Virus record (IMG/VR): IMGVR_UViG_2698536647_000003
Location: 1 to 8,752 of that record
Length of the DNA: 8,752 nucleotides
Origin: a virus
Taxonomy: Duplodnaviria > Heunggongvirae > Uroviricota > Caudoviricetes
Reading direction: 5' to 3' (one strand)
Shown here: piece after piece, positions 1-8,752 of the stretch
Layout of the letters: each line of letters begins with the position of its first letter
How positions within the stretch are numbered: the stretch's first letter is position 1
The notes under the pieces: model-generated
Told to the model about the DNA's origin: nothing
Database searches by the model: none
Seen by the model: the letters and a program-made list of their open reading frames with translations, nothing else
Translations under genes and position numbers: made by a program

Positions 1-804
1 CTGCGCCCACGGCACTGATGATTTTGGTGTTTGAGGGTCAGTGGTTGTTAGAAAACGGCTGAATACCGCATTACCGTAAGTAATCCACAGCTGCGCAATT
101 CGATGCCCGGTGTAGGAACTCTGAAACCCACAGCCATACGAAGGAGCCCACAGAGTATTGCCATCAGCATCACTGATGAAGGATGAACTGGCATCTGTGG
201 GCTTATTTTGGAGAACAGCACCAACCCCAAAAGCTCCCACCTGCATAACATTCCCTGCCGCAGTTCCGACATCCTTTGTCGCACTACTTCCTAAACCGAG
301 GTTTGTGCGAACGTCTGCTGCGTTCGTTGCCCCGGTCCCGCCCTGCGCAATAGAAAGCGCAGTAGTGAGTCCTTTCAGCTCCGTGATATCGCTGTTTGCC
401 CCCTTTCTGGCAAGTGCACCAATGCCCGGAATATTCACGGAAGCTCCGTTGATGGTAACGGTGATAGTTTGGTTTGCTGAGGTGGTGGCGAACGTCTCCC
501 ATGCGCCGATATTCTCGTCATACTCTTTGATGAGCTGAGACATGGCCTGCGCCAGGCCGTCGACTGAGATATTGTCTGACACAAGGATTCCATACTTCTG
601 GCCGCTCAGCGCCGGGGAAGCAACTGGCGTAACCGTCAAAGACGTGGCGCTGTTCACGGATGAAATCTGGAACAGCTGCACCGGGTTAGACATCACGATA
701 ATTGTCTGCCCAGCGCGAACCTGGCTGGCGGGAGCTGTCCAGTTTGTGCCGGAGCCGGTTGCGGTATTTCCGTTAATAGAGATAGTTCCTGTGCTATAAA
801 TCAT
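1..804 (-). CDS. Tail fibre protein, N-terminal 268 codons (partial; 3' end lies beyond the window start)
   Basis: Hand translation of the minus strand from ATG 804..802 is open for 268 codons to position 1 (MIYSTGTISINGNTATGSGTNW...), which explains why this frame is absent from the ATG-to-stop ORF track. TAGGAG sits 5 nt upstream of the ATG (811..816 on the minus strand). The translation contains LSIAQGGTGATNAADVRTNLGLG, a motif I recognise as recurrent in phage tail fibres. Position is immediately distal to J. Confidence 0.7.
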   Translation of the reverse strand, partial: MIYSTGTISINGNTATGSGTNWTAPASQVRAGQTIIVMSNPVQLFQISSVNSATSLTVTPVASPALSGQKYGILVSDNISVDGLAQAMSQLIKEYDENIGAWETFATTSANQTITVTINGASVNIPGIGALARKGANSDITELKGLTTALSIAQGGTGATNAADVRTNLGLGSSATKDVGTAAGNVMQVGAFGVGAVLQNKPTDASSSFISDADGNTLWAPSYGCGFQSSYTGHRIAQLWITYGNAVFSRFLTTTDPQTPKSSVPWAQ

Positions 805-881
805 AACAACTCCTAAATTTAGACAACATGAAGCCCGGAGAGGTATATAACCCTCACCAGAAATAATTTCTGAATTGGTTT

Positions 882-1228
882 TTAATACATGTTGGGCAAC
901 GCCAGTGTTGGCATAGCTATAGTTGTATCAAATGCCATTGACCACCCACCCAAATAATAATTGCCGACTACTTTATTCCTTTCTGCTCTGACATTCCCAC
1001 CTGTCATTACAATTCCTTTATACCTAATATTTCCGTAACCACCAACGTGTCGACAGTTAGCCCCGGTATAAACAATCTGGCAAAATTCATCACCAATATT
1101 CAGGTTCGCATTGGCGATATTTATTGTCCCATCAAAAATGAATGGCTTCGTGCAAGTAAGAAGACGTTTGCGTTGACGATTGGTTTATTCAATCCATCAA
1201 CCAAAATACCATGTAAACGAATTGCCAT
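882..1228 (-). pseudogene. Possible frameshifted remnant of a side-tail-fibre (Stf-like) N-terminus
   Basis: Minus-strand ATG at 1228 gives MAIRLHGILVDGLNKPIVNANVFLLARSHSFLMGQ then a stop at 1121..1123. Its first ~27 residues resemble the lambda Stf N-terminus as I recall it (MAVKISGVLKDGTGKPVQNCTIQLKARR). A second frame is open from 1130 to 882 (82 codons). AT-rich, no convincing intact gene. Confidence 0.25.
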
Positions 1229-1309
1229 AACATTTCCCACTTTATTTTACTTACTCAACACAACAAGTATATTAAAATTGAACCTTGTCAACAACACAAA
1301 GGAGTCCCA

Positions 1310-1543
1310 ATGAAACTCGCTCTAATTATGCTGCCATTATGTCTGTCCCTCACTGCATGTGGTAATGGTTTAAATACCGGTAAACCAAATTCCGGTGTCA
1401 TTCCAAAACCTTTGGATCGAGATGGTAACGGTTCTTTAATTTATGATACCGAAAACCTTCCAATGACGGGGCAGTGGTGTCACGAGATTGATCACGAATA
1501 CCGACGAATCGGTAGCCCTTCTAACTGTGTTATTGACTACTAA
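1310..1543 (+). CDS. Small predicted outer-membrane lipoprotein (77 aa), moron convergent with J
   Basis: ORF-track ORF with AAGGAG at 1299..1304, 5 nt before the ATG. N-terminus MKLALIMLPLCLSLTAC has a charged n-region, hydrophobic core and lipobox L-T-A-C (Gly at +2). AT-rich relative to flanking tail genes. A perfect hairpin terminator begins 2 nt after the stop. Confidence 0.6.
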   Translation: MKLALIMLPLCLSLTACGNGLNTGKPNSGVIPKPLDRDGNGSLIYDTENLPMTGQWCHEIDHEYRRIGSPSNCVIDY

Positions 1544-1544
1544 A

Positions 1545-1572
1545 TATTAACCCCTCAAAAGAGGGGTTAATA
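1545..1572. terminator. Bidirectional intrinsic terminator between the convergent lipoprotein gene and J
   Basis: Perfect 12-bp inverted repeat TATTAACCCCTC / GAGGGGTTAATA with a 4-nt AAAA loop. It is followed by TTTT (1573..1576) on the plus strand and flanked by A/T on the minus strand. It lies between the plus-strand stop (1541..1543) and the J stop (1575..1577). Confidence 0.65.
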
Positions 1573-1574
1573 TT

Positions 1575-4500
1575 TTAACCTGTGAATGAACCAGATCCGT
1601 GTGATACTATGACAGTAGGCGAATAAATGGACGCGCCCCTGTTATTTTGAGCGGACACTTTAATACGCACTGTTACGTTTGGACCTGTTACAACCGCAGA
1701 ATGCATGATAAGTCTCTCCATGTCTTGTACGGATGAACCACTCTCATTGCCGTTAATATTGATTAGTCCTGCACCATTACCTTTAACGTTTGCTATAACA
1801 CAGACGTGTCTTGCGTGCCCAGAACTGGATGAATCCGTATAAGTTATTACCTTTTCTAAAAGGCCGTCACTAGACCGACTAACGTCAGTTCCGGTGTGCA
1901 TATTTGCAATGTCCCCGATAAAACTTTGGGCTTCCACAGTCCCTTTGAATTTACCGCTTGTTGCTTGTATCTCACCAGTAAATCTACCGCCACTAGCATA
2001 TACTACACCTCTGACGGTCACATTGTTGAATTCAGCATCTCCAGCTTTATTCAACTTCCAACCAGCAGAACCAGCTGCATAGTTGTTGGACTGGATATAG
2101 TTACCGATTTTTGCGTTCTCAATGGTGCCGTCCTGGATGAAGCTGGCCCGGATGAATGTCTGTCCATTCTGGATCACAAACGGCAAAGCCACGCTATTTC
2201 CGGCTGCCGTGGTGACGGCGAAGCGATCAGCCAGGAAGATAACCTGCGACTGCATGCCGGATGGCGTATTCTCCACGCCGATACCCATCCCCGCGGCGTA
2301 ATACTGCCCGTTGCTGGAGACACCAACTTTGATGTTGTACATCGCGCTGAGGTCGCCGTTTACGTTCGCTATAGCCTGAGCGTTGGTTGTGATGGCTGAG
2401 GTATGCCCGTTCACCGTCGCCGTGATGCTGTTTACCTGCGTGGCCATAGCCTGCTGGTAATCGGAGAACGTCTGGTTCAGGCTGTTGATGGATGCCTTGT
2501 TGCCGTTAACGTCCGTCTGCAGGCTCAGCAGCGAGCGCGCCGTTGCCTCCCTGTCGTTGACAATCACCTCATCAATACGGTCCAGATTCGCGCTGTTGCC
2601 GGCGACCGATGCAGAAAGGGTTTTACGCGTGGCCACCTGAGCGAGGTTGGCCTGGATTATCGCAATTGCAGAGTTCTTCACCCCGCCCGTCATGCCGTCC
2701 ATAGAAACGCTGATGTTGTCGATTCGCTGGCCCAGGGCGGTATCAGCCGTCGCAACGGTCTGCTCAAGCTGACTGAGTGAAGACGAAACATTCCCGACCG
2801 TGCTGGAAAGCTCATTAACGCTGGTCTGAACCTTCCCTACGTCCTGGGCATTTTTGGCGATATCTTTCGCTTGCTGCTCCAGTTCGTCGTTAGCCTGTTT
2901 GATATCGTTAGCCATGCCAGCAATTTTTTCATTGCTGTCCACAGCGTTCTCGATCAGGTCTTTGAACGTATCGGAGCCTTTCATGTCCTCCAGGATCACA
3001 TCTGTGATGTCGGAAACATCGATGCTGGCCTGTCCTCGCACCCATTCTGTGTACCCTGATTCGTTGCCGCTGCGGTCCACCAGCTGAGCGCGGTACCAGA
3101 AAATCTGCCCAGCCTTGAGGCCCATCTGCTGATATTTGCGCTGCGGATAAGGCACATCGGCCAGCAGCATCGCATCGTCCTCGGTTCCGGTCAGGCTGTA
3201 CTGAATTTCCGTCTTCAGCGTGTCGTCGGTATTCGCCGGGAATCCCCAGTTCAGCTCGATGCCGAAAACCACATTTTCAGAAGCGATGAAGCCAACCGGC
3301 TTCGGTGGATTGCCCACTTTACCCGTCAGCGTTTTCTCTTCTGAATAGCCCCATCCGGATGAAATTTCAGCGGCGTTGATGGCACGCACGCGCACCAGGT
3401 ATCGTCCCGCATAAATGCCCGGAACATCGAACGATGTGGTGGAGCTGCGCGGCACGTTAACCCAGTTCCCGTCGTTGCGGCGCCATTGTGCTTCATAGGC
3501 GATAGCGTTCTGCGCCTGGTACCAGCTCACGCGCATTGTTTCGACGCTGATATTTTGCTGAACCACGGAAAACGAGCTGATCACGATATTCGCAGGCGGC
3601 GACTGGTTGCCCGGCGGGATCACGCTCACCGGCCGTTGGTCAATGATGGCTCCGGTATCGATACGGGCATATTTATCCGGGTCGTGCCATGCGCCGGTAA
3701 TCGAGAAAGTGCCATCATTGTTATCGGAAACGCTGACAACTCGATACTGCTGCGCGTAGAGCTCGTCAGATTCAACCACCCAAACAGCTTCGGCCTGTGG
3801 CGTCTCACTGTATGCCGTGGTGACTGTGACTGATTCCCCGTTCACGGCCTGAATGGTCCTGCTCTGCGACGCTCCGGAGGGAAGGTTGAGAATAAGGCGA
3901 TCACCTGGTGCTGCATCAGCTACGCGGTCAAGTTTGATAACGCGACCGTTAACGGCGCTGATGCGGCCGCCCATAACCTTTCCGGAAAGCAGCTCGTCTG
4001 CCACGGCGATGATGTAGCCAGGCTGCGGAATGTTTCCGTCCAGCCCGACATCAAACGAAACAACGCGATCCTTGTTGTTGGTGAGAATGCCCCAGCGCCC
4101 CTTTCGGTTCGCTTCTGACTGCCTGGTGCAGCCGATGGCTGTCATTTCCAGCTGATTGAAGCCGTATCGCGCTACCAGCGCCTGCTCAAATACCGGCTCC
4201 ATCGCGTCGGCATAAGCGTTACCCGGGTCTGACCATGAAACCAGCGCTGTGGTGTAGCGGGTTTTCGTGGTGCTGCTTGAATAGGTGAAGCGACCGCCAA
4301 CAACGTTGGCGCGCGTGTAGCTGTAATCAACATCTCGGGGCATATCGGCCAGAGCAACGATCTGATCGCCTCCCCAGTACGTCATGCCACGGAATATGGC
4401 CGCAAAATCACGCAGGACTGTATAAGCGTCGTTTCGGTCCTGGATGTACACGTTGCAGGTATAACGCGGTTCGGTACCGTTGCCCCCTTTGCCGTCTGGT

Positions 4501-5465
4501 ACCATCTGATCACAATACTGGGCAACCTGATAAAGCGTCCATTTATCAATATTCGCAGCGGTCAAACGGTGCCCGAGGCCGAACCGGTCAGAAACAACCA
4601 GATCGTAAAAAATCCACGCAGGGTTATCCGTCCATGCCCACTTAAACGCACCGGTCCATGTACCGCTATAAGTGCGGGTTTCAGGGTCGTAGGTATCTGG
4701 AACGCGGATAACACGGCCGCGGGGCTCGCAGGAGATCTGCGGGATAGAGCCGTTAAACTGACTTGAATCGAATTCGATGTAGAGTAGCGCTGTGTTTGGA
4801 TATCGTAACTTGGCGTCAATCACCTCGGTGAAGCTCTGCAGCGTCATCGTGTCGCCGATCTTCGCGCTGTTGGCATCAGAGGTAATCTTACGCAGACGTA
4901 TTGTCCAGGTGCTGCCAGCTTGCGGTAAATCGATACGGTGGCTGCGCTCATAACCAGACGTCGTTTTGCCGGTCACGCTGGTATTGAGTACCGTCTGCCA
5001 TGTGCCGCCGTCCGTCTGCAGGTCAATCGCATAATTGACCGAGTAACCCACCAGATCTCCGTCGTCTTCCTGTTTGAAAAGCGAGGGCCATTTCAGACGC
5101 AGACGAACTGCTGAAAGCTGCGTATTGGTAAACGTGCGCGTCCAGGCTGTAGCGCTTGATACCTCAGTTCCCACGCTGATTTCGTTTTCGGTACCGGGAA
5201 TACCCTGAATATATTTTTGAGCCTGCGTCCCCGCGCGAAACTCCCACGTCACGCCGCTGAAGTTTTGGGAACCGTCGGCATTCTCCAGCGCCGTTCCGTC
5301 CAGGTAGATATCTTTGCCGGTTAGCTGCCCTGCGAACTCCCCTTCGCCAAGCGCAACGAGGATTTTTGCCTTCGCTACAGATTGCAGATCATCAGGCTGT
5401 TCGGTAGGAGTTCGTGAACTGGATTTGCCGCCTTTGCGCCCCTTTAATACTTTCTCTGTAGCCAT
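1575..5465 (-). CDS. J: Host specificity protein J (central tail fibre / tail tip), 1296 aa
   Basis: Single 3891-nt ORF. The N-terminal region (KGGKSSSRTPTEQPDDLQS...) and the segment YYAAGMGIGVENTPSGMQSQVIFLADRFAV... resemble lambda gpJ as I recall it. It sits after M-L-K-I in lambda order. Start ATG 5465 has only a weak GGA-type Shine-Dalgarno. Confidence 0.93.
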   Translation of the reverse strand: MATEKVLKGRKGGKSSSRTPTEQPDDLQSVAKAKILVALGEGEFAGQLTGKDIYLDGTALENADGSQNFSGVTWEFRAGTQAQKYIQGIPGTENEISVGTEVSSATAWTRTFTNTQLSAVRLRLKWPSLFKQEDDGDLVGYSVNYAIDLQTDGGTWQTVLNTSVTGKTTSGYERSHRIDLPQAGSTWTIRLRKITSDANSAKIGDTMTLQSFTEVIDAKLRYPNTALLYIEFDSSQFNGSIPQISCEPRGRVIRVPDTYDPETRTYSGTWTGAFKWAWTDNPAWIFYDLVVSDRFGLGHRLTAANIDKWTLYQVAQYCDQMVPDGKGGNGTEPRYTCNVYIQDRNDAYTVLRDFAAIFRGMTYWGGDQIVALADMPRDVDYSYTRANVVGGRFTYSSSTTKTRYTTALVSWSDPGNAYADAMEPVFEQALVARYGFNQLEMTAIGCTRQSEANRKGRWGILTNNKDRVVSFDVGLDGNIPQPGYIIAVADELLSGKVMGGRISAVNGRVIKLDRVADAAPGDRLILNLPSGASQSRTIQAVNGESVTVTTAYSETPQAEAVWVVESDELYAQQYRVVSVSDNNDGTFSITGAWHDPDKYARIDTGAIIDQRPVSVIPPGNQSPPANIVISSFSVVQQNISVETMRVSWYQAQNAIAYEAQWRRNDGNWVNVPRSSTTSFDVPGIYAGRYLVRVRAINAAEISSGWGYSEEKTLTGKVGNPPKPVGFIASENVVFGIELNWGFPANTDDTLKTEIQYSLTGTEDDAMLLADVPYPQRKYQQMGLKAGQIFWYRAQLVDRSGNESGYTEWVRGQASIDVSDITDVILEDMKGSDTFKDLIENAVDSNEKIAGMANDIKQANDELEQQAKDIAKNAQDVGKVQTSVNELSSTVGNVSSSLSQLEQTVATADTALGQRIDNISVSMDGMTGGVKNSAIAIIQANLAQVATRKTLSASVAGNSANLDRIDEVIVNDREATARSLLSLQTDVNGNKASINSLNQTFSDYQQAMATQVNSITATVNGHTSAITTNAQAIANVNGDLSAMYNIKVGVSSNGQYYAAGMGIGVENTPSGMQSQVIFLADRFAVTTAAGNSVALPFVIQNGQTFIRASFIQDGTIENAKIGNYIQSNNYAAGSAGWKLNKAGDAEFNNVTVRGVVYASGGRFTGEIQATSGKFKGTVEAQSFIGDIANMHTGTDVSRSSDGLLEKVITYTDSSSSGHARHVCVIANVKGNGAGLININGNESGSSVQDMERLIMHSAVVTGPNVTVRIKVSAQNNRGASIYSPTVIVSHGSGSFTG

Positions 5466-5476
5466 ATCGCGTCCAT

Positions 5477-5499
5477 AAAAAAAGCCACCCGAAGGCGGC
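5477..5499 (-). terminator. Intrinsic terminator on the minus strand, ending 11 nt upstream of the J start codon
   Basis: Minus-strand RNA reads GCCGCC-UUCG-GGUGGC (6-bp stem with one G.U, UUCG tetraloop) followed by seven U (plus 5477..5483 is A7). Confidence 0.6.
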
Positions 5500-5631
5500 T
5501 ACTGTTTAAATATCAGGCTGTTGGTAACAGGAATCCCTGGTTAATGTGTAAGCTCAGCCCGCCAGTGGTAGGCCTCTGGCGTTAACTGACCGAGGGATGG
5601 CTGAAGTACCCGGTTAAAATGGAGTAATAAG

Positions 5632-5847
5632 ATGATCGAAGAAAAGTTCGTGGATTTTAGATTTACTCTTGACGAAAATATTCCTAGAGAAATCGCTTTA
5701 GAAATTGTGGCTCTAAGACAAGTTACAATGGTATTAACAGCAGCATTGCCAGTAGATACAAGGCAACAAGTTATTGAAATCCTATCAAAGACAAACTCAC
5801 CACAAATTCAAGACATCGTCAAAAATATGAAGCTTATTGACGCCTAA
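5632..5847 (+). CDS. Hypothetical 71-aa protein in the I-J insertion (plus strand)
   Basis: ORF-track ORF with GGAG at 5621..5624, 7 nt before the ATG. AT-rich. Its 3' end overlaps the 3' end of the minus-strand 49-aa ORF by about 50 nt, so at most one of the two may be real. No recognisable motif. Confidence 0.35.
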   Translation: MIEEKFVDFRFTLDENIPREIALEIVALRQVTMVLTAALPVDTRQQVIEILSKTNSPQIQDIVKNMKLIDA

Positions 5848-5946
5848 TGTCATTGAAGCATCGTACTCTACGGTCTCATGCGGGACCGTTTCATTAACTT
5901 CAGATGTTTCATTTTCAGTTTTTTCTACTCGTGACTCAAAAGACAT
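5797..5946 (-). CDS. Hypothetical small acidic protein (49 aa) immediately downstream of I
   Basis: Hand translation: MSFESRVEKTENETSEVNETVPHETVEYDASMTLGVNKLHIFDDVLNLW (11 Asp/Glu against 3 Arg/Lys). AAGGAG at 5958..5953 sits 6 nt before ATG 5946 and 8 nt after the I stop. Below the ORF track's apparent length cut-off. Confidence 0.35.
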   Translation of the reverse strand: MSFESRVEKTENETSEVNETVPHETVEYDASMTLGVNKLHIFDDVLNLW

Positions 5947-5966
5947 ACACATCTCCTTAACTTAGC

Positions 5967-6554
5967 TTACTGCTGATCTTCGACATATATCCCGGCAGAA
6001 ATAATCGCTCCGCCGATTCGACGCTTACCATAAAGCAGAGGCACTGGGTAGCCTTGCGCTGCAGTGTTGGTTACCCCGCCAAACGCATACGATGCACGGT
6101 TATCTGCGCTTTGTTTGCTGGCCAGCCCTGTAGCCTGAGGGGATAACATCTGAACTACCCCCCCCAGCGTTATGGACGCACCAGCAGCAAACATCATATT
6201 GCTGGCAGCTATACTCAGACCTGGCATCCAGATCGATGCAATCACTAATACTGCGCCCAGGATAGTTTGAATCAAACCGGCTTTTTTACTCCCGATGATT
6301 ACCGGAACAATGCGAATAACCTCGCCGGTAATCGGGAAGCCAAGGTCATCCACACCGATGTTTTTTTTACCCTTAAACACGGAGTATGTGAGCCCACGGC
6401 GTTGGCTGGAAATCATAAACTGCTCAAATCCAGGAATGGTTTTTGCGAGTGCAACGCCTGCTTCGCTTACGCGGGATATCAGACGGTAGTGAACTTTGCC
6501 AAACGTTTTTCCAAGAACACTGCCTAATTCAATTCGACTCATGACCTCTTGCAT
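5967..6554 (-). CDS. I: Tail assembly protein I (ubiquitin-like N-terminal domain, hydrophobic C-terminal region)
   Basis: Resembles lambda gpI as I recall it (e.g. ...GYPVPLLYG... near the C-terminus, Gly/Ala-rich hydrophobic stretch). I trimmed the ORF-track start (6641) to ATG 6554, which follows a GGGGGGA run by 4 nt and lies downstream of the 6570..6591 terminator. An in-frame ATG at 6542 is an alternative. Confidence 0.85.
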   Translation of the reverse strand: MQEVMSRIELGSVLGKTFGKVHYRLISRVSEAGVALAKTIPGFEQFMISSQRRGLTYSVFKGKKNIGVDDLGFPITGEVIRIVPVIIGSKKAGLIQTILGAVLVIASIWMPGLSIAASNMMFAAGASITLGGVVQMLSPQATGLASKQSADNRASYAFGGVTNTAAQGYPVPLLYGKRRIGGAIISAGIYVEDQQ

Positions 6555-6569
6555 ATAATCCCCCCACGT

Positions 6570-6591
6570 AAAAAAACCGCCGAAGCGGTTT
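6570..6591 (-). terminator. Intrinsic terminator on the minus strand after the K-I lipoprotein gene
   Basis: Minus-strand RNA reads AAACCGC-UUCG-GCGGUUU followed by a U-run (plus 6570..6576 is A7). Lies between the lipoprotein stop (6616) and the I start (6554). Confidence 0.65.
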
Positions 6592-6615
6592 AATTTGGTT
6601 GATTTATTTAGGTGT

Positions 6616-7011
6616 TTATTTATTAAAATGTTTCTTTTCAATGCTCATTGCTTGATTAAAGAAATTTGTAGCATTAATTACCGCCCTTTCACAATCCTTC
6701 TGCCCATAATGTCGATGGCATTGGAATTCAGCATTTATTGCCGTATCGCCGGACTGTTTAACCTTAGATGCCCGTCCTGCAAGTTGCCTTGTATCAATAG
6801 GTGGGAATGTTGTTATAAATGTATCGTTAGCTGATTCTACTCTCATTTTTGTTGCAAACTCCAAATGCTGAGGAACCTTCGACCAAAGATAACTACATTC
6901 AGCCTCTGATGAACATGTGACAGGCTTAGTATCTAATACCGGCATTGGCCTATTATCAGCACATCCAGCGGTGGCAAGTACCACAAGACCAGAGAACAAT
7001 ATTTTTTTCAC
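6616..7011 (-). CDS. Cys-rich predicted outer-membrane lipoprotein (131 aa), moron between K and I
   Basis: ORF-track ORF starting at GTG 7011..7009 (no in-frame ATG nearby), with GGGAAG 7 nt upstream. N-terminus MKKILFSGLVVLATAGC fits a lipoprotein signal with Cys+1 and Ala at +2. The mature part has 4 further Cys. AT-rich; own terminator downstream. No homolog recognised. Confidence 0.6.
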   Translation of the reverse strand: MKKILFSGLVVLATAGCADNRPMPVLDTKPVTCSSEAECSYLWSKVPQHLEFATKMRVESANDTFITTFPPIDTRQLAGRASKVKQSGDTAINAEFQCHRHYGQKDCERAVINATNFFNQAMSIEKKHFNK

Positions 7012-7098
7012 AATTAAGCTTCCCTTTCATTGAAAATATCAGAGGAATACTAACATGAAGTTATGGAGTGAGTAATTAACAACTTAACCACTATAGAA

Positions 7099-7809
7099 TT
7101 AACAAAATACTTTGTACCGAAGTACTTTCATTGTTCTTTCCTGCCAGTAGCCACCATATGGCACGCGCTGGCTAAGATGACCGTACAAATGATGCAGTAG
7201 CATATTGCCCTCAAGCAGGATCCCCGCGTGATTCCACTTATCGGCCTGGACCTGCATGATGATGAGGTCCCCTTCCTGAGGCGGGCCATCAAACTCCCTG
7301 AATCCGCACTCGTACCAGCACTCCTGATAGAAATTGTCCGGGTAGTCGTTTTCCCACCAGGGATAATCCACCCGGTAATCGTGGAGCTCGATACCGTGGG
7401 TCTGCCGGAAATAGCTCATTACCAGACCCCAGCAATCGAAGTGGCCAAGCACGAACGGACGCTCCAGCAATGGCAGCTCCCCGCGTGGCTGAATGGTACG
7501 TAAATCCCCCTCTGGCCAGCTCACAATATGCCAGGGCAGCAGCGTTGCATCACACTGTGCCTTATCCAGCTCGCTGGCCTGCGTCGTCGCATCAGGATGG
7601 CTGTGAACAATGGCCACCACCGTCCCCCAGTCTTCTGCCGCTGCGTAATCTTCGGGGGACAGGTGAAAATGTTCAGTCGGCTCTGCTGCGAGATTACGAC
7701 AGGGAAAATAGCGCTCAACCCGGCTTTTCTGTGCCACCACGCCGCAGCACTCGCGCGGATATTCCGCTGCAGCGTGTGCCATGATGGCATCAATGGTTTT
7801 CTGGCGCAT
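7099..7809 (-). CDS. K: Tail assembly / tail tip protein K (JAMM/MPN metalloprotease-like N-domain plus NlpC/P60-like C-domain)
   Basis: JAMM motif visible: E in PRECCGVV, then HSHPDATTQASELD, which fits H-x-H-x7-S-x2-D. NlpC/P60-like Cys in GHFDCWGLV and His in WNHAGILL. Start set at ATG 7809 (protein MRQKTIDAIM...) with AGGAG 5 nt upstream; the L stop TGA (7813..7811) is 1 nt before it. The ORF-track start at 7845 is probably an upstream non-ATG artefact. Confidence 0.9.
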   Translation of the reverse strand: MRQKTIDAIMAHAAAEYPRECCGVVAQKSRVERYFPCRNLAAEPTEHFHLSPEDYAAAEDWGTVVAIVHSHPDATTQASELDKAQCDATLLPWHIVSWPEGDLRTIQPRGELPLLERPFVLGHFDCWGLVMSYFRQTHGIELHDYRVDYPWWENDYPDNFYQECWYECGFREFDGPPQEGDLIIMQVQADKWNHAGILLEGNMLLHHLYGHLSQRVPYGGYWQERTMKVLRYKVFC

Positions 7810-7810
7810 A

Positions 7811-8566
7811 TCAACTCCTGATAAGAGATGTACCGGGGAAACCACCGAACGGCAGCTCGTTGCTGTATCCGTGCCGGAGCTTGCAGGCCGTCAGCGTGCC
7901 GTTGCATACATCCAGCGAGGGATCGTCAACCGGATTATTGTTTTTGTCGAAATAGCGCGTTCCGGCATAGTCGCAGCCGTCGCCGGTACGATATTTATTC
8001 CGGATGCACCAGGTACACAGGGAATGAAGCTGTCGCGTCGGGATCATTTGCCCCTGCAGGTCCATCGGGCTGGATAGTGTGAACTCAACAACTTCATTGG
8101 TTTCACTGCTCTTTGCATCGATGTAGAAAACCTTCAGCTTCTCCTGGGTCGGATCGGCTGTCGGATTGCCTCCGGTGAAGTTTCTCGCATCAAGATACTT
8201 ACCAAGGGTGTCATGTATCGTCACCTTCGCCTGCAGCATATCGTCGTAAGCCAGGCAAAGCGCGGTGATCGAACTGTCGAGGTTAGCAACCGAAAGTTTT
8301 GGCTGGGCACTACTTCCCGAGGTTGAAGCTTCGATCCCATCAATCTGGCATGGCCACGCTTTATACTCCTCACCCTGCCACCAGATAGATTTTGCTGGCA
8401 GTTTATTTTCATCACCGCCAGCAGCCTCAATCTCTTCCGGGGTATGCGCGATGTTATGTGCGTGGAAGCGGAGTACATCTGACATACCGAACGCTGTGCC
8501 ATCGACAGAAAAAAGCCGGACTTCATTGCCCGGCTCGAGTTTTTGATAATCAGCATTAAGACTCAT
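7811..8566 (-). CDS. L: Tail tip protein L (251 aa)
   Basis: Position between M and K. C-terminal Cys cluster (LCTWCIRNKYRTGDGCDYAG ... CNGTLTACKLRHG) resembles the conserved Cys pattern of lambda gpL as I recall it. The ATG at 8566..8564 overlaps the M stop in an ATGA arrangement. Confidence 0.9.
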   Translation of the reverse strand: MSLNADYQKLEPGNEVRLFSVDGTAFGMSDVLRFHAHNIAHTPEEIEAAGGDENKLPAKSIWWQGEEYKAWPCQIDGIEASTSGSSAQPKLSVANLDSSITALCLAYDDMLQAKVTIHDTLGKYLDARNFTGGNPTADPTQEKLKVFYIDAKSSETNEVVEFTLSSPMDLQGQMIPTRQLHSLCTWCIRNKYRTGDGCDYAGTRYFDKNNNPVDDPSLDVCNGTLTACKLRHGYSNELPFGGFPGTSLIRS

Positions 8567-8752
8567 GGTGCAAATGCCTGTTCAAACGTTGCGGTTACGG
8601 TTATCACTTTTACGTTTTTAACCACCTTTTTGAGCGTGTCAGCCTCGACACGCCACAGCGCGGTATCGCCGAAAGGCGGTGTGAAAATAAACGACTTCAC
8701 TTTATGCCGCCGAAGGAAAGCGTGAATTTCATTCGCTGTAGTCGGATCCCCT
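8563..8752 (-). CDS. M: Tail tip protein M, C-terminal 62 codons (partial; 5' end lies beyond the window end)
   Basis: Hand translation of the minus strand from 8751 gives ...GDPTTANEIHAFLRRHKVKSFIFTPPFGDTALWRVEADTLKKVVKNVKVITVTATFEQAFAP then a stop at 8565..8563. This resembles the C-terminal half of lambda gpM as I recall it (...WKSFLWTPPYEW...). The stop overlaps the L start. Confidence 0.8.
   Translation of the reverse strand, partial: GDPTTANEIHAFLRRHKVKSFIFTPPFGDTALWRVEADTLKKVVKNVKVITVTATFEQAFAP

Follow-up and report, generated by a model that had tools for sequence, protein, structure and literature searches.

The insert between tail genes I and J of an HK97-like prophage is probably one copy of a modular accessory-gene cassette with a conserved leader

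The window analysed here is a stretch of 8,752 nucleotides (positions 1 to 8,752 of the IMG/VR virus record IMGVR_UViG_2698536647_000003) from a lambdoid prophage of the HK97/HK022 type and spans the tail-tip region. Its tail genes lie on the minus strand (Table 1) and are about 90% identical to those of HK97, HK022 and mEp506, as judged from a comparison of the window with these phages. We placed the start of I where PGAP places it in an identical E. coli prophage; the mechanically listed ORF (5967-6641) instead runs from TTG 6641 and overlaps a lipoprotein ORF. In lambda, I and J are adjacent. Here they are separated by 501 bp (5466-5966), in agreement with an earlier note, made from the sequence alone, that had recognized an insertion of about 500 bp relative to the lambda order. 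The insert is AT-rich compared with its neighbours (GC 0.41, falling to 0.36 in the part that holds the cargo gene and the opposing ORF, versus 0.50 for I and 0.54 for J). The locus thus shows two of the features expected of a moron, namely additional sequence that separates genes lying side by side in related phages and a base composition unlike that of the flanking genes. Two complete E. coli chromosomes carry the insert at 100% identity.

The anatomy given in the earlier note was right. It comprises a 71-aa plus-strand ORF with its own GGAG (7 nt before the ATG), a 49-aa acidic minus-strand ORF coupled to the stop codon of I, an overlap of the 3' ends of these convergent ORFs across 5797-5847 (51 nt), and a strong minus-strand terminator that closes the insert before J. 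Its interpretation is partly supported, as detailed below.

Table 1. Features of the I-J insert and positions of the flanking tail genes in the window
Feature	Coordinates	Strand	Details
L	8566..7811	-	
K	7845..7099	-	
I	5967..6554	-	ATG 6554, 195 aa
49-aa acidic ORF	5946..5797 (stop 5799..5797)	-	ATG 5946; Shine-Dalgarno AAGGAG 5958..5953; pI 4.3
Hairpin (8 bp, 5870-5889) followed by UUUCAUU	5870..5896	+	after the plus-strand ORF, inside the minus-strand ORF; candidate terminator
71-aa cargo gene	5632-5847	+	GGAG 5621-5624; pI 4.7; phrog_6806 family
Predicted structured 5' leader RNA	5554..5631	+	P1, P2, P3 and Shine-Dalgarno GGAG 5621-5624
P1	5554-5559 with 5599-5604	+	TCAGCC with GGCTGA
P2	5560-5567 with 5574-5581	+	
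P3	5590-5596 with 5609-5613	+	loop holds the 3' strand of P1
-10-like TAATGT (TAnnGT)	5542-5547	+	invariant; for most sequences, the motif formed part of the search pattern
-35-like TGTTGG/TTGGTA	5519-5526	+	poor: TGTTGG at 17-bp, TTGGTA at 15-bp spacing
Promoter-like region	5501..5553	+	CTACTG / T.TCAGG.TGTT block; per-position conservation over 96 unique sequences
Intrinsic terminator, late-operon strand	5476..5500	-	stem 5500..5483, U-run 5482..5476
J	5465..1575	-	

Comparison with deposited phages indicates that the insert is an already annotated kind of element, of which a near-identical copy exists. Indeed, mEp506 (PV340542) carries an I-J insert that is 98.8% identical over 501 bp, with both ORFs annotated; the six nucleotide differences all lie in 5468-5620 and none falls inside either ORF. 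At I|J, HK97 (NC_002167) has the convergent genes gp22 ('moron product') and gp23 ('reverse moron product'), which overlap by 123 bp and are accompanied by annotated terminators, and HK022 (NC_002166) has gp22 and gp23 ('srb'), with an overlap of 81 bp. Both phages share the late-strand terminator and the region upstream of the reverse gene with the window, and HK022 gp23 is of the same family as the 71-aa ORF, whereas HK97 gp23 and the gp22 proteins of both phages are unrelated to the window's ORFs. The same layout occurs at M|L in ES18 (genes 24/25, 'possible morons') and SPN3UB, after Rz in HK633 and mEp213, and between holin and endolysin (S|R) in Evi, Perceval and many E. coli Qin/DLP12-like prophages (YdfR, DUF1327). 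Like the window, the ES18 and Qin/DLP12-like cassettes combine the leader module, a reverse small gene and a forward small ORF inside the late operon; unlike it, they sit at other junctions and their forward ORF is a DUF1327 protein, which the window's minus-strand ORF is not. That the arrangement had already been annotated in HK97, HK022, ES18 and mEp506 went unrecognized in the earlier note. The moron concept reportedly goes back to Juhala and colleagues in 2000, a paper cited in PMC3594210. We found no paper on HK97 gp22/gp23, HK022 srb or a 'reverse moron', and a literature search that fell short of the key 2000 and 2005 papers returned no description of the structured leader or of the multi-site, modular character of the cassette.

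On the sequence evidence, the 71-aa ORF is a real gene. Residues 19-67 match the PHROGs profile phrog_6806 with an E-value of 1.6e-6, HK022 gp23 matches the same profile (E 3.9e-8), and proteins in the family alignment keep to 65-76 aa. Homologues span 11-69% identity with a conserved length: those that are 63-69% identical occupy the same I|J place in Kosakonia-like prophages, and those that are 49% identical sit between M and L. A profile search with the family retrieved 64 clusters across Enterobacterales, nearly all of 65-76 aa; a first profile scan of genome contigs yielded no confirmed relative. Comparison of the gene with its Kosakonia homologue gave pN 0.24 and pS 0.81, a value at which synonymous sites are saturated. 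PGAP annotates it as the sole ORF of the insert in the identical E. coli prophage.

The function of the protein was approached through structure and profile comparisons. AlphaFold2 (AF2) models it as three helices that follow a less ordered N-terminus (pLDDT 79). A Foldseek search of the PDB with this model returned nothing below E 2, both ORFs gave only noise against Pfam, and no functional clue to the 71-aa protein came from the PDB, Pfam or PADLOC. The mEp506 record labels the ORF 'DUF2594 containing protein', which Pfam does not reproduce: DUF2594 (YecF, PF10769) matched neither the window protein at E up to 1 nor HK022 gp23 at E up to 10. A profile-profile comparison of the family with YecF (hhalign) gave a probability of 44% over 34 columns, and the label may reflect, at best, a weak profile resemblance to YecF; a distant relation is possible. 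When run against the PDB, the family profile matched the neck repeat of human DC-SIGNR (3jqh) with an E-value of 3e-15 over about 40 residues, through the pattern E..ELT.LK..VG.LP. We did not accept this as homology and take it as a coiled-coil pattern resemblance, probably a convergent periodicity, which hints that the 71-aa protein may oligomerize. Rip1, the prophage pore-forming sensor of the small terminase, was likewise discarded as a relative (Foldseek match to 9oox at only E 6.4, TM 0.35), and neither the family profile nor the three other cargo families tested showed sequence similarity to it.

The minus-strand terminator has the GC-rich stem and U-run of a rho-independent terminator: a terminator scan returned a 7-bp stem with five GC pairs, a GNRA-like loop (UUCG) and seven U, with a folding energy of -12.3 kcal/mol (z -2.8). 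It ends 10 nt ahead of the J start codon. The same position is labelled 'terminator' in the HK97 and ES18 records, and an A-run that fits a late-strand terminator is present in 76 of the 96 unique upstream sequences. On the other strand, the hairpin that follows the 71-aa gene has a weak U tract and is a weak candidate for the terminator of that gene; the 56-nt segment that contains it folds at -12.1 kcal/mol (z -1.5). At the aligned place, a GC stem and U-run are clear in the Kosakonia homologue, and the HK97 and ES18 records annotate a terminator there.

Going beyond the earlier note, we found that the most conserved part of the insert is neither ORF but the 130 nt between the late-strand terminator and the plus-strand ORF. 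This stretch, which the earlier note passes over, is probably the conserved functional core of the cassette. Positions 5501-5631 are 95% identical to HK97 and 84% identical to HK022 over 116-139 nt, while the proteins encoded behind the matching leader in these phages are unrelated, or only 23% identical, to the 71-aa protein. The first part of this core (5501-5553) may function as a promoter, to judge from its conserved blocks, although a scan of the plus strand for the sigma-70 consensus found no match. Several regulator sites were checked by hand and dismissed: a LexA site upstream of the cargo gene (CTG-N9-CAG has the wrong spacing) and sites for CRP, PhoP, lambda CII (TTGC-N6-TTGC) and IHF, for which there was no fit or a loose one (IHF-like WATCAR-N4-TTR).

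The second part of the core would be transcribed as a leader with three helices, P1 to P3. The loop of P3 contains the 3' strand of P1, which implies either a pseudoknot or two alternative states. Among 91 distinct leaders, P2 is paired in 97% of cases with double changes in five of its eight pairs, and P3 is paired in 83% with double changes in five of its six pairs; none of 500 shuffles and no slid register reached the observed values. RNAalifold predicts P1 and P2 unaided. Because G-U pairs are allowed only in one orientation, the helices of the plus strand are more completely paired than those of the minus strand (97.1 vs 87.1% for P2, 83.0 vs 74.5% for P3), and the structure therefore belongs to the transcript of the reverse gene rather than to the late mRNA. 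Note that P1 was part of the search pattern and could not vary among the 91 leaders. Scans in which a change in its 3' strand was forced lend the helix modest support. They recovered one compensated pair (TCAACC/GGTTGA) and one G-U wobble, along with two contigs with an uncompensated A-C and variants in which a C-A mismatch is accompanied by a CAUC:GAUG extension of the helix; three kinds of variants had mismatches of the A-C type. The window's own leader is not an ideal representative, as P2 contains a U-U mismatch (U-G in mEp506), P3 needs a bulge, and the predicted fold is not better than that of shuffled sequences (z -0.8). No Rfam 15 family matched anywhere in the window at E up to 1. A conserved upstream mini-ORF in the leader (ATGGCTGA...) was considered and dropped, since the Shine-Dalgarno-like GGAGG abuts its ATG and the peptides vary in length and sequence.

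High nucleotide identity of 5501-5631 across phages could have a simpler origin. The region might have no RNA function and be a recently spread recombination linker joined to a late-strand terminator module; conserved ends around a variable middle are what linker-mediated exchange should produce, and P1 and most loop residues are indeed invariant. We consider this very unlikely, because 10 of the 14 pairs of P2 and P3 show compensatory double changes, above all 500 shuffles and the slid controls, and because the wobble pairs fit the plus-strand transcript only. Furthermore, the leader is kept across unrelated cargoes at a fixed distance from their Shine-Dalgarno sequence and start codon, which points to a function in expression.

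The distribution of the leader was assessed with a pattern derived from the alignment, which was found in more than 119 viral contigs and also in Citrobacter, Enterobacter, Kluyvera, Dryocola, Phytobacter, Buttiauxella and Pseudocitrobacter genomes. A BLAST search with the HK633 copy yielded hits in 225 of 5,426 complete E. coli genomes (about 4%), always in the chromosome. In each of the 151 instances surveyed, a small ORF came directly after the element. The products of these ORFs, 88 distinct cargo proteins, fell into 20 unrelated clusters, mostly of 56-97 aa. A late gene on the opposite strand matched at least one flank in 116 of the 151 instances, a count that is no proof of exclusivity as flank matching covered the opposite strand only. 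The junctions were M|L (44), the glycosyltransferase / HK633_068 site (31), I|J (18), the position upstream of M (6) and the position after Rz (5). Relatives differ in the presence of the cassette at a given site: M and L are adjacent in locus L004 and separated by a cassette in locus L012. One cargo family can be found at several sites, and one site can hold many families; the family of the window's 71-aa gene occupies three different sites. The presence of two leader copies in some genomes indicates that several cassettes can share a late operon. Such copies lie a few kb apart in L076 (295-366 and 4419-4491), in L160 and L165 (the same Enterobacter bugandensis contig) and in SPN3UB (two places).

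As for the cargo proteins, every match to PHROGs was to a family of unknown function, PADLOC gave no defence match for the ten families submitted, and no cargo family corresponded to a solved structure. The only Pfam matches among the cargo families were a retropepsin-like aspartyl protease (PF13650, E 8e-6; 154 aa) and DUF1883 (E 2e-26). Other larger cargoes behind the leader include a 210-aa family, found at I|J only, and a 169-aa protein.

The right-hand end of the cassette also recurs. A forward ORF, i.e. one read with the late operon, whose product begins like MTLEQRVEALE follows directly after a Shine-Dalgarno sequence at this position in at least 107 of 146 cassettes. In the codons of the MTLEQRV N-terminus, third positions are the least conserved (0.94 bits, vs 1.40 and 1.60 for positions 1 and 2), which indicates selection on the protein, and in two close Kosakonia cassettes pN/pS of the forward ORF is 0.46 in its own frame vs 0.82-1.25 in the other five. 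Past the shared N-terminus the forward ORFs diverge into HK97 gp22-like proteins (phrog_11851), DUF1327 proteins and pieces weakly like the tip domain of J. In L012 (1703-1966) and L017 (1843-2049), for example, the MTLEQRV-type ORFs show a short, weak similarity to the J tail-tip family PF09327 (E about 1e-3), as if they derived from tail-fibre fragments. Forward ORFs that match DUF1327 (PF07041) are found in ES18 (gp24) and in the YdfR-like ORFs of E. coli, and DUF1327/YdfR proteins are also encoded at holin|endolysin and M|L junctions in L173 (1842-2156), L174 (1906-2124) and L016 (1947-2207). E. coli YdfR has been found to bind the catalytic half of RNase E and to co-purify with RNA (2026, PMC13232886). 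This link may bear on the structured leader of the opposing gene.

Whether the window's own 49-aa ORF belongs to this forward class is a finer question. The ORF listing gives it as 5952..5797 (51 aa), but AAGGAG abuts that ATG; we prefer the start at ATG 5946, which lies 6 nt from it. An HMMER search of 1.84 billion representative proteins returned one copy with 98% identity and no other homologue, Pfam and PHROGs gave no match, and PGAP does not call the ORF in the identical E. coli prophage. Its identification as DUF1327/YdfR was rejected as there was no PF07041 match. In view of these results, of the low-complexity, acidic character of the product, and of the fact that the ORF carries the cargo gene's hairpin and overlaps its 3' end, there is a substantial chance, somewhat short of even, that only the plus-strand gene is real and that the minus-strand ORF, a leftover of the conserved right-hand junction, is not translated or has no function and has stayed open by chance in AT-rich DNA. 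In close relatives, moreover, this region diverges five times faster than the plus-strand ORF (19 changes per 162 nt vs 4 per 216 nt). By contrast, a ribosome-binding site at ideal spacing only 8 nt past the I stop codon is not what one would expect of a leftover, nor is the N-terminus MSFESRVEKTE, which agrees with MTLEQRVEALE at 6 of 11 residues through different codons, nor the 66-nt indel that separates the ORF from its Kosakonia counterpart in frame; the forward-ORF family at the same position, too, shows coding-type selection. On balance, the odds that the 49-aa ORF is translated seem to us a little better than even. In position and Shine-Dalgarno sequence it corresponds to the MTLEQRVEALE forward ORFs, to whose family it may belong.

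The earlier note had argued that, given their antisense overlap, both ORFs could not easily be real, and had proposed comparing the conservation and synonymous substitutions of each ORF across homologous inserts. The argument is not supported: overlap of the 3' ends is usual in these cassettes, the plus-strand ORF is under purifying selection, and the minus-strand ORF of relatives shows coding-type selection. The comparison came out in favour of the plus-strand ORF and of the minus-strand ORF of relatives (pN and pS or their ratio as given above); for the window's own 49-aa ORF the evidence is indirect.

Convergence might itself be the purpose of the arrangement. The two genes could form a regulatory pair in which converging transcription or antisense RNA makes expression of the late operon and of the cargo mutually exclusive, or which acts in a toxin-antitoxin-like manner. 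Over its whole length, the cargo mRNA would be complementary to the late transcript; a forward ORF accompanies a reverse gene at one site after another, and the layout is convergent in 136 of 146 related cassettes, most of which have overlapping 3' ends (median overlap 22 nt). Nevertheless, the extent of the overlap varies widely, from 3' ends 120 nt apart to ends overlapping by 225 nt in these 146 cassettes, and forward and reverse families assort freely instead of forming fixed pairs. PADLOC found no match, and neither product resembles a type I toxin (GRAVY 0.14 for the 71-aa protein and -0.53 for the 49-aa product, neither with a hydrophobic stretch). A type I toxin-antitoxin system proper was rejected, as both products are acidic and not hydrophobic and the AF2 model is that of a soluble three-helix protein. 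A regulatory pair thus appears unlikely.

The reading that we favour, with a probability of roughly 0.65, is that the insert represents a modular cassette for accessory genes, the 'moron plus reverse moron' of HK97-like lambdoid phages, with conserved ends and a swappable middle, which forms its own expression unit against the late operon. The data above show the anatomy and homology of the insert, selection on the 71-aa gene, covariation in the RNA and the spread of the module over different sites and cargo families. Promoter activity and its timing, a role for the leader, translation of the 49-aa ORF and any function of the proteins are inferred, and the cassette might work as follows. The left end (5476-5631) would combine the late-strand terminator, the opposite-strand promoter-like region and the leader of about 80 nt, and would drive the 71-aa gene against the tail operon. 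The leader would begin at about the predicted transcription start and end in a Shine-Dalgarno sequence that could serve any small gene carried. Production of the cargo would not depend on late transcription and would most plausibly take place in the repressed prophage, and the 5'-terminal helices may stabilize the mRNA, gate its translation, or both. The hairpin at 5870-5889 would end the plus-strand transcript after the cargo gene. The late-strand terminator, for its part, would block unscheduled transcription into J. In lambdoid phages, late transcription is carried out by Q-modified polymerase, which overrides terminators; during lytic growth it would presumably read through this one. The right end would provide a short ORF in the direction of the late operon, together with its ribosome-binding site; here this is the 49-aa ORF, whose own end falls within the 3'-terminal part of the cargo gene. 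Finally, the conserved ends would permit exchange of the cargo by homologous recombination.

The leader may be compared with that of ompA, a 5'-terminal stem-loop that stabilizes its mRNA. As in stabilizers of the ompA type, a helix would be located at or within a few nt of the 5' end, here a predicted one, and be followed by an accessible Shine-Dalgarno sequence. The two have no sequence relation. Unlike the ompA type, the leader described here has invariant loops and a possible pseudoknot, which suggest more than passive protection. A bolder proposal, which we put forward as speculative and rather doubtful, is that the leader (P1-P2-P3, with invariant loops containing GGA motifs) represents an undescribed class of cis-regulatory RNA that controls hypervariable prophage accessory genes, for instance via CsrA or by sensing the state of infection, and that the cassettes form a hotspot in the late operons of Enterobacterales lambdoid phages at which small proteins with anti-phage or host-modifying roles are swapped as cargo. 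That cassette proteins benefit the prophage or act against other phages is a guess made only from their position, their orientation and the diversity of the cargo.

The window contains further small genes around the tail operon. A second AT-rich insert lies between K and I (6555-7098, GC 0.38); it holds a minus-strand 131-aa ORF (7011..6616) with a lipoprotein-like N-terminus (LATAGC) and a match to phrog_16082 (E 8e-9), a family of unknown function. This ORF is followed by a hairpin (6574-6591) with a terminator score on either strand. At the K-I junction, different small genes are found in HK022, HK97 and mEp506. Just downstream of J, on the opposite strand, a 77-aa lipoprotein ORF with an LTAC lipobox (1310-1543, plus strand) matches phrog_12984 ('lipoprotein') over its full length with an E-value of 1e-56, in an AT-rich surrounding (800-1550, GC 0.35-0.43). 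Among the features that the HK022 record lists within the match to the whole window is a Cor superinfection exclusion protein.

Temperate phages carry their host-altering genes in morons, most of which are uncharacterized. What appears worth carrying forward from this locus is the combination of a conserved structured leader with a modular, multi-site cassette, a system in which fixed ends would enclose some 20 interchangeable families of small proteins and which occupies a number of junctions in the operons for tail and lysis genes. HK97, HK022 and mEp506, which carry it, grow on E. coli K-12. As the leader precedes unrelated genes, it would offer a handle for finding such genes in the absence of protein similarity, and since a single regulatory element is shared by all of them, studying the leader would explain the expression of the whole gene set.
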